Below, piece by piece: positions 1,817 to 21,654 of a stretch of 23,896 nt of DNA (the first letter of the stretch is position 1; every line of letters starts with the position of its first letter). The position numbers and the translations under genes were made by a program. Under the pieces are notes generated by a model. The model did not search any database. It saw only the letters and a list, made by a program, of their open reading frames with translations, and was not told the DNA's origin. This DNA is from a virus: the UHGV virus genome UHGV-0115697; one strand, written 5' to 3'.

Positions 1817-2785
1817 TTAGATTTCTGGTTTCATTCTTCCGAAAACCTTTTCTATTCCTTTTTCGTATTCTTCTCTTGTCTCACTCATCGCTGCGACACC
1901 AAGAAGCTTACCGATATGCTGACGCAAAGCCTTGACACCAATTTCAGAAAGGAACAGATGCAACTTATCAGATTGTTTTCCGTTCTCGTCTCGGCTGGCT
2001 CGAATCTGTTCAAGGATTTTACCTTTACTCTTTGCTAGCGGGGTATATATCTGCATGTTGGTTAGCTGCCCAAAACGAATAGGCCGTCCTTTCTCTGGCC
2101 TATTCAGGCCGTACAGTCGATACCACTCCTCGTATAGCTCATCTGGAAATTCCTTTTCATATTGACGAGCCTCTTCACGAACAAACGCTTTGAACTCGTC
2201 AATGACAGCCTGAACTTCTGGACGATAACCAGCAAGCGCATACGCAACCCCCTTAATTCCCGCCTTAGCGGAGGCATTAATAAGTCTCTGTGCTGCGGCG
2301 GCTGCCTTTAACCGTGATTGTGGTAGATCGTCATTATCTTTGGCTTCTATTAGTGCCCTACCAATATCAACAATTGCTGTAATGTCATAACCTAACGCTT
2401 GATGAACGGTTTTAGACTTCGAAGTAAGTTGAAATTTATAGGGATTTTCCATTTTTCGCTGCAATTCTAGATCTCGGTATTTGCTCATATACTGAGCGCC
2501 AAGCAGTTGATCTAAATCCCTGGCATGTTCACCAATCCCTAGCAACTGAGATAATCCAGTTTTCGTAACAACGACAGTTTTCGACTCGTCATCCAGTACA
2601 TAACATTCAGCGTCAATGCCAAAATCATCTAAAAAGTTACCACGATGAGTTGCCCTGAGAATCTTACTTTTCCATCTTGCAGCAGCTGCTTTCTTTGCTA
2701 TTTCAGAACGCTGCTCTTTAGTCAGCGACTTTGCGCGAGCGATCCCGCCCTTAGCTTTCCCTTCGCCACTTTTCTTTTCAGTCAT
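1817..2785 (-). CDS. Hypothetical 322-aa soluble Lys/Glu/Ala-rich protein with basic N-terminus (accessory/moron gene in the position of P22 ant)
   Basis: ATG at 2785 preceded by AAGGTG SD; track ORF extends upstream from a TTG. N-terminus MTEKKSGEGKAKGGIARAKSLTKEQRSEIAKKAAAARW; no confident family match from memory (weak recollection of P63C-domain-like N-termini). Same orientation as tailspike; looks AT-rich. Confidence 0.6.
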   Translation of the reverse strand: MTEKKSGEGKAKGGIARAKSLTKEQRSEIAKKAAAARWKSKILRATHRGNFLDDFGIDAECYVLDDESKTVVVTKTGLSQLLGIGEHARDLDQLLGAQYMSKYRDLELQRKMENPYKFQLTSKSKTVHQALGYDITAIVDIGRALIEAKDNDDLPQSRLKAAAAAQRLINASAKAGIKGVAYALAGYRPEVQAVIDEFKAFVREEARQYEKEFPDELYEEWYRLYGLNRPEKGRPIRFGQLTNMQIYTPLAKSKGKILEQIRASRDENGKQSDKLHLFLSEIGVKALRQHIGKLLGVAAMSETREEYEKGIEKVFGRMKPEI

Positions 2786-2877
2786 AATGCAAGCACCTTT
2801 GTTGTTATGTATGCTTGCATTATATACACTGTACACACATACAAGCAAGCATAAAACTAAAACAAAATGCTTGCATT
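2786..2877. promoter_or_regulatory. Divergent intergenic control region with four ATGC-NN-GCAT operator-like palindromes
   Basis: aATGCAAGCAc (2786-2796), ATGCTTGCAT (2811-2820), aaGCAAGCAT (2843-2852), ATGCTTGCAT (2867-2876); arranged as two pairs with about 24-bp centre spacing; TATATA at 2821-2826 between them. Confidence 0.45.
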
Positions 2878-2945
2878 ACAACCGCGCTACTCCAACTACA
2901 CATTATCATCTGGTATCCTGCTCAAAACTAAGGAGTGGCTACTCA

Positions 2946-3584
2946 ATGAAAAAAATAGATATATATAGCGATACATCAGCCTATGTCATAGGCTCATTGG
3001 GGTTTTTAATTTTTTTTGTTTGGCAGTACCAGTCACTATCTCCAGGATGGCGATTTTTGGGGATGTCTTTGATATCACTTGGTGCAGGAATAGCAACGCA
3101 GGTGTTGATGTATCTCTTTAATGGATGGCTCTCAAAAAGAGTTGAGAAAAAAAGAGCTACTTCAATATGTAGAAGCCTAGCTATTCCAGAAGACTCTACA
3201 GATCAGGATGATATTGCAAAATGTTGGCGGTATATGATTGCAAGATACTCAAATGAGTTACTGGCAAACAGACTGTCCGACTTAATCGGGATCGTAGTTA
3301 CCTCTGTTGGAACAATCATCAGTATAGGGATATCAATTTGGTATGTCGGGATGATTGTCTATTTTGTTTGGAATAGAGACTTCAATGAACCTTCCCTTCT
3401 TTTTATACCTTTATTTTTCAGGGTATTAGCATTCATATGTGAGTTATTGCTCTCTTTTTTCTGCAATGTTTTGTTCAACAGATACCCAGGTGAAGCAAGA
3501 AAGTTTAATAAAAACTATGATGAGTTAAGGAGAACAGATCCTTTTCTATCAAGCAAAGAGTTCCGCGATTCCATTCGCAATTAA
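2946..3584 (+). CDS. Hypothetical 212-aa integral membrane protein (~4 predicted TM helices); candidate superinfection-exclusion-type moron; only plus-strand gene in window
   Basis: ATG at 2946 with AGGAG at 2931-2935; hydrophobic segments AYVIGSLGFLIFFVW, FLGMSLISLGAGIATQVLMYLF, LIGIVVTSVGTIISIGISIWYVGMIVYFVW, LLFIPLFFRVLAFICELLLSFFCNVLF; charged loop and tail; AT-rich; sits where P22 has sieA. Confidence 0.6.
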   Translation: MKKIDIYSDTSAYVIGSLGFLIFFVWQYQSLSPGWRFLGMSLISLGAGIATQVLMYLFNGWLSKRVEKKRATSICRSLAIPEDSTDQDDIAKCWRYMIARYSNELLANRLSDLIGIVVTSVGTIISIGISIWYVGMIVYFVWNRDFNEPSLLFIPLFFRVLAFICELLLSFFCNVLFNRYPGEARKFNKNYDELRRTDPFLSSKEFRDSIRN

Positions 3585-19789: not shown

Positions 19790-20235
19790 GACAGGAACAG
19801 AGCTCGCTCTGCCTTGCGGCGATTCGTGAGCCCCGGCATCACCTTTCCGCCTGATTTATTCCAGCGCAGAAATTCATCTGCCGCGCCTTTTATATCGCCA
19901 GCATTCAGCTTTTTCAGCAGTGTAGATGTGGAAAGAGCACGCGACCCAACGTTGTAAGCGAACGACACCAGTGCGTCGAACTGGCCTTGTGTCAGCTTCA
20001 CCCTGACAACTTTCAGCACGTCATTCTCATAACCAACAAGCCCTGTTTTCAGAAGCCTGTCAGCGGTTTGCTGGTCGATAGTCATACCGCGCTTTACTGG
20101 CTTTCCGTCAACCGGATGGGTCCAGCCATAGCCGATGGTCCACGGCGCATCTCCCGTTCCGGGGTCTGGGTAAGCAGTCAGCCGACAACCTTCAAATTTT
20201 TTTATCAGAGCAATTCCGTCAGGACTGGTTTGCAT
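19786..20235 (-). CDS. Endolysin, P22 gp19-type lysozyme (GH24, T4-lysozyme-like)
   Basis: [21 protein letters not shown]......TIGYG.T and C-terminal ...[11 protein letters not shown] match remembered P22 gp19; ATG at 20235 preferred over upstream track start, which would overlap holin by 89 nt. Confidence 0.9.
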
Positions 20236-20542
20236 CGTCAACTCCCGCCTTTTTTGCTGCAAGTTTTTTAATAAGATTGCCGATCGAATCGGTGCCGATG
20301 TATCCAATAAAGACGCTGGCTATGTAGGCGAGGTTGCTGCTCAGGCCGATAAAGTCCAGAAGGTCACGAACGAACCAGGCAATCATCGCGCACATCAGCG
20401 CATCAATTAGCGTTTTTGTTACCGCGCCGCCGTTATAGCGACCACGCAGATACGCCATGATAAAAGCCAGCATTGCACCAATACCCTGCTCCTTGGCGGC
20501 AAGTAGCGCAGCGATGAAATCTTGTTTGTATGGCATTTTCAT
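20219..20542 (-). CDS. S: Class I holin, lambda S-type with dual-start (Met-Lys-Met) motif
   Basis: 107 aa [91 protein letters not shown] matches lambda S107; GGAGGTGA SD; ATGs at 20542 and 20536. Confidence 0.9.
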
Positions 20543-20650
20543 AGGCCTCACCTCCGATTTTTCGGATGGCGCTGTGTGTGTATGAAAAGGATCAGGCTTC
20601 ACTGGCTGGATTTTCAACAAAGCACGTAGTGATTGATTCCCGTGAGCCTG

Positions 20651-20675
20651 AAATAAAAAACCCGCTCAAGGCGGG
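20651..20675 (-). terminator. Intrinsic terminator (minus strand), tR'-like, downstream of the tRNAs and upstream of holin
   Basis: Minus-strand CCCGC-CUUGA-GCGGG hairpin (plus 20661-20675) followed by UUUUUUAUUU (plus 20651-20660). Confidence 0.6.
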
Positions 20676-20731
20676 AATGTTAGGGTGTGGCAATGTCAGC
20701 TCTGCGGCTGAAGATACCCTGGCTGGGTTTT

Positions 20732-20807
20732 TGGTGCCGGTTAACGGATTTGAACCGCTACCTATTCACTTACAAGGCGACCGCTCTACCATTGGAGCTA
20801 AACCAGC
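20732..20807 (-). tRNA. tRNA-Thr (anticodon UGU)
   Basis: 76-nt minus-strand cloverleaf GCTGGTT-TA-GCTC-CAATGGTA-GAGC-G-GTCGC-CTTGTAA-GTGAA-TAGGT-AGCGG-TTCAAAT-CCGTT-AACCGGC-A-CCA: 7/7 acceptor pairs (one G-U), 4-bp D stem, T loop TTCAAAT, encoded CCA; anticodon stem has one G.A and one G-U. Confidence 0.65.
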
Positions 20808-20812
20808 ATGTT

Positions 20813-20887
20813 TGGCGGGACAGCGTGGACTCGAACCACGATAAGAAGGTTAACAGCCTTCCGTAATGACCTTTATACGACTGACCC
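20813..20887 (-). tRNA. tRNA-Asn (anticodon GUU)
   Basis: 75-nt minus-strand cloverleaf; perfect anticodon stem GAAGG/CCTTC with loop CTGTTAA; T arm CGTGG-TTCGAGT-CCACG as in E. coli tRNA-Asn; discriminator G and encoded CCA; one U.U mismatch at acceptor 4-69; 5-nt spacer to tRNA-Thr. Confidence 0.65.
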
Positions 20888-20950
20888 AAATAAAAAAAGC
20901 CACCGTTGCAACTTAAGAGTCACTAACGGCAGCTTACCCTCTAATTATGG

Positions 20951-21469
20951 CTAAATGGCTAATTGCATGTCAAGGTTTTTAACAGCAACATGCTTAACTT
21001 TCTCAACACGTTTACGCATTTTGAAAGCATTTTGCATTGGTTGGTACAAAACAAATAATGACGCTTTCAGGATGTCGTCAATTTCATTTCTACAGGTTGC
21101 CAGTGAAGGTTTTCTCCATCCCTCGCCACCACGTCCACACATCTTGCGTGGCTTTGCAGTCGCGTGATAGTAGGATGCAATTGCTCGCTTAGATGAACCA
21201 TGAGCGTAGTAGCTGAGGAGGATGCCAAAGGCTTTCTTGTCAATGTACATGACGGAATCGACGACCTGAGAAATCAACATTCCATCGTCATCATTACACA
21301 TTGGCCTTGTCATAACTCTTCCCGGCTCTACGCTCTCCATGAACTTAACTATTACGCTGCTCATGCGCTTTTCCAGACGACCTGAATAAACCCATGCCCC
21401 CCACAGTTCAAGCCAGCCATTCAGCCAATCGTGCTGTTCTTTGGTGAGGTTTATTTCTCTTATGCTCAT
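20951..21469 (-). CDS. Q: Late-gene antiterminator Q (phage 82 / QuuD family)
   Basis: 172 aa; L.LWGAWVYS...SRPMCNDDDGMLI resembles remembered QuuD (..ERWGAWAA...SRPQCCDDDAMII); sits immediately upstream of the tRNA/lysis late leader. Confidence 0.7.
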   Translation of the reverse strand: MSIREINLTKEQHDWLNGWLELWGAWVYSGRLEKRMSSVIVKFMESVEPGRVMTRPMCNDDDGMLISQVVDSVMYIDKKAFGILLSYYAHGSSKRAIASYYHATAKPRKMCGRGGEGWRKPSLATCRNEIDDILKASLFVLYQPMQNAFKMRKRVEKVKHVAVKNLDMQLAI

Positions 21470-21654
21470 CGTCTTCCTCTCTTGCCCTGTTTGACCATCA
21501 GGACGCCGTTAACTATTACGTGACGCTCACCTTTGCTGTCTCGGTTGTACTTGAGCACTGTTCCTCTTGCGCAGGAAAGCATCCTCGCCACTTCGGTCTG
21601 ATTGCCTCGTGTCTGGATAAGAAGCTCTGGTATCGTTTGAATTGTGGCGTTCAT
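21466..21654 (-). CDS. ninH: NinH (Fis-like small DNA-binding protein)
   Basis: 62 aa; ..KTIP..L....GNQTEVAR.L.C.RGTV.KY..D..G..H.IVN.VLMV matches remembered lambda NinH. Confidence 0.85.
   Translation of the reverse strand: MNATIQTIPELLIQTRGNQTEVARMLSCARGTVLKYNRDSKGERHVIVNGVLMVKQGKRGRR

Follow-up and report, generated by a model that had tools for sequence, protein, structure and literature searches.

The window, a stretch of 23,896 nucleotides of virus DNA (UHGV virus genome UHGV-0115697), carries on its minus strand a tRNA-Asn(GUU) and a tRNA-Thr(UGU) gene within a late leader. Taken as a whole, these genes are probably best explained as the known mobile lambdoid two-tRNA cassette, placed after the tR' U-tract of a P22-like E. 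coli prophage, expressed in dependence on Q, and with counter-defence as its main benefit. The genes and their placement are already known, with textbook-level annotation for phage 21, Sf6 and P22-like phages, and are nothing new by themselves. The useful outcome is a correction of an earlier sequence-only reading of this DNA: the late leader has two predicted terminators with the tRNA genes in between, and expression of the tRNAs would be Q-dependent rather than constitutive.

Along the minus strand the order is the Q gene, pR' with the Q-binding repeats, the predicted start site, the sigma-dependent pause element (SDPE), tR', tRNA-Asn(GUU), 5 nt, tRNA-Thr(UGU), a 56-nt spacer, the second terminator-like site (t2), and then the holin, endolysin and spanin genes followed by the virion genes (Table 1). 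Downstream of the holin, the Pfam matches are a lysozyme (PF00959) and then Rz (PF03245).

Table 1 Features of the late leader and its flanks in the window.
Feature	Position	Strand	Evidence
Q antiterminator gene, phage 21/Sf6 type, 172 aa	20951..21469	-	ORF list; Pfam PF06530 Phage_antitermQ 4.5e-25
Late promoter pR' (-35 TTGACA 20973-20968; -10 CATAAT 20949-20944)	20944..20973	-	promoter scan, 11/12 matches, 18-nt spacer
Putative Q-binding element (QBE), tandem 8-mers AATTAGCC/ATTTAGCC	20949..20964	-	read from sequence; aligns to phage 21 QBE ATTGAGCA/AATGAGCA
Predicted late transcription start	20937	-	by homology; aligns to annotated phage 21 start, 7 nt past -10 hexamer
SDPE, TAAGCTG	20930..20936	-	identical to SDPE annotated in phage 21 record OL657228
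tR', late-leader terminator (nested hairpin 20935-20898, then UUUUUUUAUUU)	20888..20935	-	fold centroid -20.2 kcal/mol, z -4.36, U7
tRNA-Asn(GUU), 75 nt, CCA encoded, G73 discriminator	20813..20887	-	ARAGORN; Rfam tRNA model 55.3 bits
Inter-tRNA spacer AACAU, 5 nt	20808..20812	-	sequence
tRNA-Thr(UGU), 76 nt, CCA encoded	20732..20807	-	ARAGORN; Rfam tRNA model 55.4 bits
Second terminator-like site t2 (stem CCCGC/GCGGG 20675-20661, loop CTTGA, U-tract 20660-20651, TTTTTTATTT)	20651..20675	-	terminator scan
Class I holin, lambda-S-like dual start (MKM...), first protein gene of late operon	20219..20542	-	Pfam PF05106 8.5e-30

Two phage-type tRNA genes

The sequence-only reading had placed two adjacent minus-strand tRNA genes, both with encoded CCA ends and separated by 5 nt, between the Q gene and the holin in a Q-dependent late leader. 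ARAGORN calls the genes at exactly the outer coordinates proposed there, Rfam agrees, the Pfam families of the flanking genes confirm the position, and the spacer and CCA ends can be read directly from the junction (...GTCCCG-CCA-AACAT-GCTGG...). The Rfam RF00005 scores in Table 1 compare with a gathering score of 29 (E about 1e-9). Among the homologues of tRNA-Thr 94.9% of the cells were paired and three pairs carried double (compensatory) changes, while the corresponding figures for tRNA-Asn were 88.8% and seven pairs, and neither result was matched by any of 500 shuffles. It is clear that both tRNAs are genuine, far beyond chance.

The anticodon loops, CUGUUAA and CUUGUAA, have 7 nt with U33 and a purine at position 37, and U8, G18-G19 and the T-loop GTTC(R)A are present as well. 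Synthetase identity elements are G34, U35, U36 and G73 for Asn, and G1-C72, C2-G71, G35 and U36 for Thr; all of them are found in the window sequences, which are probably functional phage-type tRNAs with the expected identity elements. Function had been doubted earlier on account of a U.U mismatch at acceptor position 4-69 of tRNA-Asn and of G.A and G-U pairs in the anticodon stem of tRNA-Thr. These irregularities are all present, the Rfam alignment marking U4.U69 together with U13.U22 in tRNA-Asn and G27.A43 in tRNA-Thr, where G30.U40 is visible too, but U4.U69 occurs in 8 of the 9 Asn alleles and G27.A43 in all 14 Thr alleles. Judged from this comparison of alleles, the listed mismatches are conserved features rather than decay.

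For tRNA-Asn the window has the commonest allele, shared by 40 of 52 copies. Its tRNA-Thr is a minor one (2 of 43 copies), five transitions away from the allele shared by phage 21, Sf6 and HK446, and scores 55 bits compared with 61 bits for the latter. Recent capture from the host was considered as a source and rejected, since K-12 asnT and thrU share only about 60% identity with the phage genes, compared with 75-85% for tRNAs of N4-like and T4-like phages.

The benefit of the cassette

By analogy with other phages, counter-defence is the likeliest benefit of the cassette, unproven for the window, and simple tRNA supply would be a secondary one. The anticodons match those of host tRNAs cut by defence tRNases, Thr(UGU) being a target of both OLD and PARIS and Asn(GUU) of PARIS, and according to a recent report OLD is overcome by a near-identical tRNA-Thr. 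P2 OLD depletes the host Thr(UGU), and OLD-sensitive phages plate again when the HK446 Thr(UGU) is expressed (10.64898/2026.07.10.737580), results that come from a preprint and from a plasmid-expressed HK446 tRNA, from which the minor allele of the window differs by five transitions. In the same preprint one Thr tRNA gave no rescue of lambda or of OLD toxicity in recB cells. Gly(UCC), another tRNA found in the same slot, is also an OLD target.

The AriB nuclease of PARIS cleaves the host tRNAs Lys(UUU), Thr(UGU) and Asn(GUU) between C and N in U36-A-A-U39-C-N, and a change of U39 abolishes cleavage (PMC12409363). Positions 36-41 read UAAGUG in the window Thr and UAACCU in the window Asn, as opposed to UAAUCA and UAAUCC in the host tRNAs, and the anticodon stems differ completely; many tRNAs have a base other than U at position 39, which makes the U39 difference weak evidence. 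Variants of tRNA-Lys, -Thr and -Asn from phage T5 neutralise PARIS (PMC11464382, PMC12409363). T5 and the window share the anticodons UGU and GUU, the U39 of the AriB motif is replaced in both, and their Thr anticodon stems are similar (GUCGC in T5 and GUUGC in the window). The two sets are nevertheless not close homologues, and T5 is a lytic phage with about 24 tRNAs under their own promoters that supplies the essential Lys(UUU). PARIS escape requires a Lys(UUU) tRNA (PMC12409363), which the cassette lacks, and late-only expression would leave the translation of early genes, ACA users among them, unprotected.

We regard it as rather unlikely that codon supplementation is instead the main function, that is, more tRNA for the Asn codons and for the rare codon ACA, which would be heavily used in the late structural genes. 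In E. coli the single-copy thrU is the sole reader of ACA. In the late genes ACA makes up 12.7 per 1000 codons, compared with 8.6 in a set of 22 ordinary K-12 genes and with 2.9 in genes of high expression, and Asn accounts for 5.1% of the codons, compared with 4.2% and 3.4%, respectively. The sequence-only reading had suggested that the tRNAs support translation of an Asn/Thr-rich tailspike and injection proteins, and had proposed a check of late-gene codon usage; these proteins are indeed about 7% Asn, and the same suggestion has been made for phage L (PMC8022706). The enrichment over the K-12 gene sample is however modest, only 1.2-fold for Asn and 1.5-fold for ACA, and by enrichment ACA ranks 12th and AAC 19th of the 61 codons, whereas AGG, AGA, GGA and ATA are far more enriched without a matching tRNA in the cassette. 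In the coat gene ACA occurs just once. Moreover, the cassette is absent from CUS-3 and from more than half of the IMG/VR relatives, with late genes about 95% identical or the same Q, so that among these phages the presence of the tRNAs does not track codon usage.

Two terminators and the timing of expression

The window resembles a phage 21-type late leader in that a Q gene of the Phage_antitermQ family lies directly upstream with the promoter over its 3' end, the SDPE lies just past the start site, and an intrinsic terminator is found within about 50 nt of the start. The genes of this type in Sf6, BTP1 and others carry the annotation Q, and pR', which overlaps the Q stop codon, sits where pR' is annotated in Sf6 and in phage 21. 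The phage 21 QBE is absent from the window, which has the Sf6/L variant instead, and the near-identical pair AATTATCC/ATTTAGCC has been proposed as the QBE of phage L (PMC8022706). The Q specificity of the window is presumably Sf6-like rather than 21-like.

None of 200 shuffles was as stable as the tR' fold. The hairpin and its U7 run are base for base the late terminator of the phage 21 record OL657228, which gives PMID 1704887 for it, and also the Sf6 feature annotated tR', and it is on these GenBank annotations of phage 21 and Sf6 that the assignment as tR' rests. The hairpin of t2, found by the terminator scan, does not by itself exceed chance, the scan giving three terminator-like sites with 1.6 expected and the local fold a z of -0.7. 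It is backed by a homologous, covarying hairpin that phage L (GCCCAC/GTGGGC) and Klebsiella phage Mulock (GCCCG/CGGGC) have at the corresponding position, and it recurs in both of the two window-like IMG/VR loci. The predicted t2 is a second, downstream terminator and not tR'. By consensus criteria only 10 of 49 tRNA-bearing loci have a trailing terminator. Folding gives, after tRNA-Thr in both phage 21 and HK446, a long hairpin that the simple terminator scan had missed, and in phage 21 alone a U7 run comes next; for these two phages the absence of a second terminator is therefore valid by the criteria of the scan only.

In a lysogen pR' would be expected to fire and stop at tR', as in phage 21, lambda and the Stx phages, and the constitutive transcript would be an RNA of about 47-50 nt that is free of tRNA, because tR' lies between the promoter and tRNA-Asn. 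A separate tRNA promoter was considered and rejected: in positions 20200-21600 a scan for the promoter consensus gives pR' as the single minus-strand hit, and there is no room for another promoter because tRNA-Asn abuts the tR' U-tract. On this layout the tRNAs would be made mainly by Q-modified polymerase, needing either Q antitermination or leakage through tR'. Once Q is made, a terminator-resistant polymerase would pass both tR' and t2, the tRNAs would be the first products in the late RNA, and they would presumably be excised by RNase P and trimmed at their 3' ends. The t2 site would then belong to the leader of the downstream lysis module, where it may halt polymerases that leak past tR' before they reach the lysis genes, with a low tRNA-only output in lysogens as a possible by-product.

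The sequence-only reading had instead taken pR', the tRNAs and the hairpin now called t2 for a lambda-like pR'-6S-tR' unit, from which the tRNAs would be made constitutively in lysogens as a short leader transcript and boosted by induction. We find this improbable. The GC-rich hairpin and U-tract it described do exist, conserved also in phage L and Mulock, and leakage through tR' ending at t2 would yield some constitutive tRNA. It overlooked, however, the much stronger terminator upstream of the tRNAs, which is identical to the annotated phage 21 late terminator, so that, as annotated in that phage, tR' precedes tRNA-Asn and the short transcript would be tRNA-free. Relatives that lack the tRNAs keep tR', and 39 of the 41 surveyed Asn+Thr loci (36 Sf6/21-like and three other) have no consensus terminator 3' of the tRNAs. 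High read counts for both BTP1 tRNA genes in lysogen cultures are implied by Owen et al. 2020 (PMC7067206), the supplement of which gives no tRNA expression values, but since spontaneous induction of BTP1 is very high and tRNAs are stable, such counts do not discriminate.

The cassette is annotated in phage 21, Sf6, BTP1 and many others, and is found in about 15% of complete E. coli genomes. It is carried by 33 of 80 Sf6-type and 13 of 80 lambda-type Q loci, and in 48 of the 49 tRNA-bearing loci tRNA-Asn directly abuts the U-tract of a tR' that is either 21-type or lambda-type. In CUS-3 and the loci L008-L010, all without tRNAs, pR'-tR' is retained and homology breaks right past the tR' U-tract. 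As far as these alignments tell, the cassette is optional and separable, near-identical phages keeping pR'-tR' without the tRNAs and HK446 carrying the cassette after a lambda-type tR'.

It is highly improbable that the tRNAs are passengers without a function, whether as decaying copies, as scars of recombination or to make up for a host tRNA gene disrupted by integration (the last a speculation of the OLD preprint, 10.64898/2026.07.10.737580): the cassette is indeed optional and lies at a mosaic boundary, two Watson-Crick pairs of the window Thr allele are weakened to G.U, and the second tRNAs of phage L and E. albertii are degenerate or chimeric, but against this stand the strong sequence conservation with compensatory stem changes, the lack of any pair broken by variation in the window alleles, the rescue of translation-dependent phage growth by the HK446 allele (same preprint), the distance of the cassette from the attachment site, and anticodons (UGU/GUU) that differ from thrW (CGU) and argU, the integration targets of P22-like phages (PMC8022706, PMC2629481).

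Extending the counter-defence reading beyond the window, we tentatively suggest, with somewhat less than even confidence, that Asn(GUU)+Thr(UGU) is a compact mobile counter-defence module of temperate lambdoid phages, directed against the TOPRIM tRNases of competing P2 prophages (OLD) and P4-like satellites (PARIS). Such a module could dock at any tR' U-tract and become the first Q-antiterminated product, and where a trailing terminator is present (the window, phage L, Mulock) leakage through tR' would keep a low level of nuclease-resistant tRNA available in lysogens without lysis. A link between the lambdoid tRNA-Asn and PARIS, or a role for the flanking terminators, was not found in the literature searched. 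If the role is counter-defence, the cassette would provide a case of temperate-phage tRNAs in phage-against-phage conflict that is very widespread and easy to test.

Relation to known phage systems

The order pR', tR', tRNA-Asn, tRNA-Thr and holin is that of phage 21, where OL657228 annotates the -35, QBE, -10, start site, SDPE and terminator (attributed to Guo, Kainz & Roberts 1991) followed by tRNA-Asn and tRNA-Thr. The sequence from the SDPE through tRNA-Asn is identical in the two, and tRNA-Thr is 93% identical. In contrast, homology ends at the start site on the promoter side, the Q-binding repeats and -10 of the window being of the Sf6/L type, and the pinholin S21 module of phage 21 is replaced in the window by a lambda-S-type holin module and the small terminator. 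Sf6 (Casjens et al. 2004, AF547987), BTP1, SPN9CC and HK620 relatives share the Q type, pR', the putative QBE, tR' and both tRNAs at 96-97% identity, annotated as such; homology with Sf6 stops at the 3' end of tRNA-Thr, beyond which Sf6 lacks t2 and its spacer, about 240 nt long, is a different one. HK446 has the same Asn+Thr cassette directly after the tR' U-tract, with the Thr allele also found in 21 and Sf6, in which 5 of the 76 positions are unlike the window (93% identical), but its Q, pR', 6S leader and tR' are lambda-type. A prophage in NZ_LR536431 is 100% identical over 321 bp, yet its neighbouring genes differ (ninI phosphatase, frameshifted lysis genes) and it is a different prophage.

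In the Stx phages (ileZ-argN-argO; StxS leader sRNA; PMC7547250) tRNAs likewise follow tR' and precede the late and lysis genes, and the constitutive pR' transcript ends at tR'. Their anticodons are different, their leader is 258 nt long and processed to an sRNA as compared with about 50 nt in the window, and a separate promoter is reported between the Stx tR' and the tRNAs, an arrangement that is inapplicable here because only pR' was found and tRNA-Asn abuts the tR' U-tract. The lambda pR'-6S RNA-tR' unit follows the same logic, with a constitutive promoter, Q loaded at a pause close to the promoter, and a short leader that is terminated. The 194-nt lambda leader, however, contains no embedded element, and its equivalent in the window would be 20937-20888 and not the tRNAs with the 20651-20675 hairpin.

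Two terminators around a late-leader tRNA pair

In the whole 23.9-kb window ARAGORN calls two tRNA genes and no more, and both are also found by the Rfam tRNA model, whose gathering score is 29 (E ~1e-9 for both). They lie between the Q and holin genes with a 5-nt spacer (AACAT) and encoded CCA ends (...GTCCCG CCA AACAT GCTGGTTT... and ...CCGGCA CCA AAAACCC...), as the sequence-only reading had described. Past the holin gene Pfam detects lysozyme, Rz, virion genes and a P22-type tailspike head-binding domain, and as a whole the window is an E. coli prophage of P22-like (Lederbergvirus-like) type with E212, CUS-3 and Sf101 as relatives. It also has, between the genes for the injection proteins and that for the tailspike, a plus-strand ORF of 265 aa (2787-3584) overlapping the end of a minus-strand ORF of 343 aa (1817-2848); the stretch 1817-3584 is probably immI or an accessory region.

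Features of the Q-holin interval, in order of transcription
Feature	Position	Strand	Basis or remark
Q	20951-21469	minus	Pfam PF06530
pR' -35	20973-20968	minus	alignment to phage 21
tandem AATTAGCC/ATTTAGCC repeats	20964-20949	minus	putative Sf6/L variant of the Q-binding element (PMC8022706)
pR' -10	20949-20944	minus	alignment to phage 21
predicted transcription start	20937	minus	alignment to phage 21
sigma-dependent pause element	20936-20930	minus	alignment to phage 21
tR' hairpin	20935-20898	minus	alignment to phage 21; fold
tR' U-tract	20897-20888	minus	tRNA-Asn begins at 20887
tRNA-Asn(GUU/GTT)	20813-20887	minus	ARAGORN; Rfam tRNA model, 55.3 bits
tRNA-Thr(UGU/TGT)	20732-20807	minus	ARAGORN; Rfam tRNA model, 55.4 bits
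t2	20675-20651	minus	CCCGC-CTTGA-GCGGG then TTTTTTATTT (terminator scan)
holin	20219-20542	minus	Pfam PF05106

The same reading had taken the hairpin downstream of the tRNAs as the equivalent of tR' and the tRNAs as part of a short constitutive leader, and neither claim is supported. A strong tR' lies immediately upstream of tRNA-Asn, as annotated in phage 21 and Sf6; it folds at -20 kcal/mol (z -4.4, with none of 200 shuffles as stable), and the only reason why the consensus terminator scan passed over it is that a hairpin forms its loop. The phage 21 record lists the -35, Q-binding element, -10, start, sigma-dependent pause element (TAAGCTG), a terminator for which Guo, Kainz and Roberts 1991 is cited, tRNA-Asn, tRNA-Thr and pinholin, and the window matches it without a difference from the pause element to the end of tRNA-Asn, terminator included. 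The Sf6 record gives the order pR', qut site, "late mRNA leader terminator, tR', similar to phage 21", tRNA-Asn and tRNA-Thr. Because tR' precedes tRNA-Asn, the predicted terminated leader is approximately 47-50 nt long and free of tRNA, and since the terminator thus comes before the embedded RNAs, the locus lacks a defining feature of a lambda-like pR'-6S-tR' unit with embedded tRNAs.

The predicted constitutive leader (20888-20937, about 50 nt) is nearly all one hairpin; in Stx phages an sRNA role is described for StxS (PMC7547250). TAAGCTG (20930-20936) is part of the 5' arm of tR' (20888-20935), so that the same bases are both DNA pause signal and RNA terminator stem. The CUS-3 record labels the pause element/tR' stretch a mosaic "boundary sequence".

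A promoter scan revealed no further promoter-like site between Q and holin, in contrast to the Stx phages, where a separate tRNA promoter has been mapped (PMC7547250). With pR' as the only promoter found and tRNA-Asn behind tR', transcription of the tRNAs must therefore start at pR' and pass tR'. The tRNAs would be made by Q-modified polymerase, plus any leak past tR'.

The hairpin and U-tract downstream of tRNA-Thr do form a terminator-like site, for which a second terminator, t2, is the best reading. Homology to Sf6 and phage 21 stops at the 3' end of tRNA-Thr, and the downstream spacer and holin are another module, akin to phages Louie, HK225 and mEp237 and to Klebsiella phages. In phage L and Klebsiella phage Mulock the spacers that follow the tRNAs align with that of the window and have a hairpin and U-tract at the same place with covarying stems (window CCCGC/GCGGG, phage L GCCCAC/GTGGGC, Mulock GCCCG/CGGGC), and Mulock shows the layout of promoter, strong tR', four tRNAs, second terminator and holin. 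The Mulock tRNAs (L043:1484-1803) are Asn-GUU, Phe-GAA, Thr-UGU and Arg-UCU, the Asn and Thr genes being homologous to those of the window with compensatory stem changes. t2 itself is modest (5-bp stem, local fold z -0.7), and only 10 of 49 tRNA-bearing loci have a trailing terminator by consensus criteria. In both phage 21 and HK446 the sequence past tRNA-Thr folds into a long hairpin, and only the phage 21 copy has a U7 run behind it. The phage 21 hairpin (L004:885-1000), stable, terminator-like and immediately past tRNA-Thr, was missed by the consensus scan; CUS-3 and two relatives without tRNAs (L008, L009) have the same sequence, by alignment only. t2 would back up tR' in barring unmodified polymerase from the lysis genes, and through t2 a leak past tR' would yield tRNAs only.

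Spread and separability of the cassette

Many phages, among them Sf6, BTP1, SPN9CC and Oslo, share at 96-97% identity a 270-bp region that runs from the Q 3' end across the promoter and through the two tRNAs. It matches 95 phage records, usually with the tRNAs annotated; of 5426 complete E. coli genomes 832 contain it, and there both tRNA-Thr and tRNA-Asn are annotated by PGAP. One E. coli prophage (L003; NZ_LR536431, 3499878-3506198) matches the window at 100% over the tRNA region; it has a ninI phosphatase gene beside Q and frameshifts annotated in holin and Rz, so that here an identical cassette belongs to another prophage in partial decay.

Behind tR' the cassette behaves as an insertion that can be present or absent. 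CUS-3 has an identical pR', Q-binding element, pause element and tR', diverges directly past the U-tract and has no tRNA, and three genome loci with Q 87-98% identical do the same. Any tRNA follows Q in only 7 of 35 Q21-type loci from different Enterobacterales species. Among Sf6-type Q loci in IMG/VR, 33 of 80 carry tRNAs (26 Asn+Thr, 5 Asn alone, 2 Asn+Gly(UCC)), and Asn+Thr occurs in 13 of 80 lambda-type Q loci there. HK446 has both tRNAs behind a lambda-type pR', 6S-like leader and lambda-type tR', and tRNA-Asn abuts the tR' U-tract (TGGCTTTTTTTATTT or CGGGATTTTTTATTT) in 48 of 49 tRNA-bearing loci. In HK446 (L047:1201-1356, JQ086372) both genes directly follow tR'; its GenBank record carries no tRNA annotation, and the OLD preprint mentions a single Thr(UGU).

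Integrity and probable benefit of the tRNAs

The mismatches that had been taken to cast doubt on function are real: in the Rfam alignment tRNA-Asn has U4.U69 and U13.U22, and tRNA-Thr has G27.A43 and G30.U40. As a sign of doubt they fail, since all 14 Thr alleles keep G27.A43 and 8 of the 9 Asn alleles keep U4.U69. Compensatory double changes across alleles affect 3 Thr and 7 Asn pairs, which none of 500 shuffles matched. The window carries the major allele of tRNA-Asn (40 of 52 copies) and a minor one of tRNA-Thr (2 of 43); the latter is five transitions away from the 21/Sf6/HK446 allele, with no pair broken and two Watson-Crick pairs turned into G.U (Rfam score 55 bits vs 61 for the common allele). 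The published identity elements are GUU and G73 for Asn and G1-C72, C2-G71, G35 and U36 for Thr, and all are present. Identity to K-12 asnT and thrU is only about 60%, other phages' tRNAs being closer.

In Escherichia albertii NBRC 107761 (L014:2161-2314) a normal phage tRNA-Asn is followed by a chimeric tRNA-Thr (5' half phage allele, 3' half thrU-like) that ARAGORN does not call, and 3 nt further on by tRNA-Gly(UCC); the chimera's sequence suggests recombination between phage cassette and host-type tRNA genes. The second tRNA of phage L (L002:1202-1273), annotated as tRNA-Leu(TAA), gets no ARAGORN call and only 42 bits from Rfam; judged by its acceptor and T arms, common to the Thr gene, and its shortened variable region, it may be a degenerate or retargeted derivative.

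We tentatively consider counter-defence the most likely main benefit of the pair, Thr(UGU) being a target of PARIS and OLD and Asn(GUU) a target of PARIS. The PARIS nuclease AriB cuts host Lys(UUU), Thr(UGU) and Asn(GUU) between nucleotides 40 and 41, beside a UAAU motif; changing U39 abolishes cleavage, and the T5 versions of these tRNAs jointly neutralise PARIS (Belukhina et al., PMC12409363). At positions 36-41 the window has UAAGUG (Thr) and UAACCU (Asn) against UAAUCA and UAAUCC in the host, U39 being replaced as in the T5 copies; however, many tRNAs have a base other than U at position 39, and the cassette lacks Lys(UUU), needed for PARIS escape (PMC12409363). P2 OLD reportedly acts as a tRNase that lowers the levels of Thr(UGU), Gly(UCC), fMet, Val(UAC) and Pro(UGG), and expression of viral Thr(UGU), including that of the lambdoid HK446, restores plating of OLD-sensitive phages whereas E. 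coli thrU does not, although a single tRNA fails to rescue lambda (July 2026 preprint, 10.64898/2026.07.10.737580). HK446 carries the same Asn+Thr cassette, but the HK446 Thr allele expressed in that rescue is not the window's. Gly(UCC), the alternative second tRNA in the cassette slot, is another OLD target. Against counter-defence, late-only expression would not protect early translation.

Codon supply, proposed in the sequence-only reading as support for late translation, is a less likely main benefit: the injection proteins and tailspike do contain about 7% Asn, and the late genes exceed 22 ordinary K-12 genes and the ribosomal/elongation-factor genes in ACA (12.7 vs 8.6 and 2.9 per 1000 codons) and Asn (5.1% vs 4.2% and 3.4% of codons), but this enrichment is modest, that for AGG, AGA, GGA and ATA is far stronger, and phages with near-identical late genes do without the cassette.

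Relation to known cassettes

The present analysis adds the corrected two-terminator anatomy and the match of the lambdoid Asn+Thr pair to the PARIS/OLD target sets, a match that we did not find in the searched literature. The feature itself is a member of the phage 21/Sf6 late-leader tRNA cassette, which the records of both phages already describe and which has been discussed for phage L (PMC8022706) and for epsilon34 relatives (PMC2629481).
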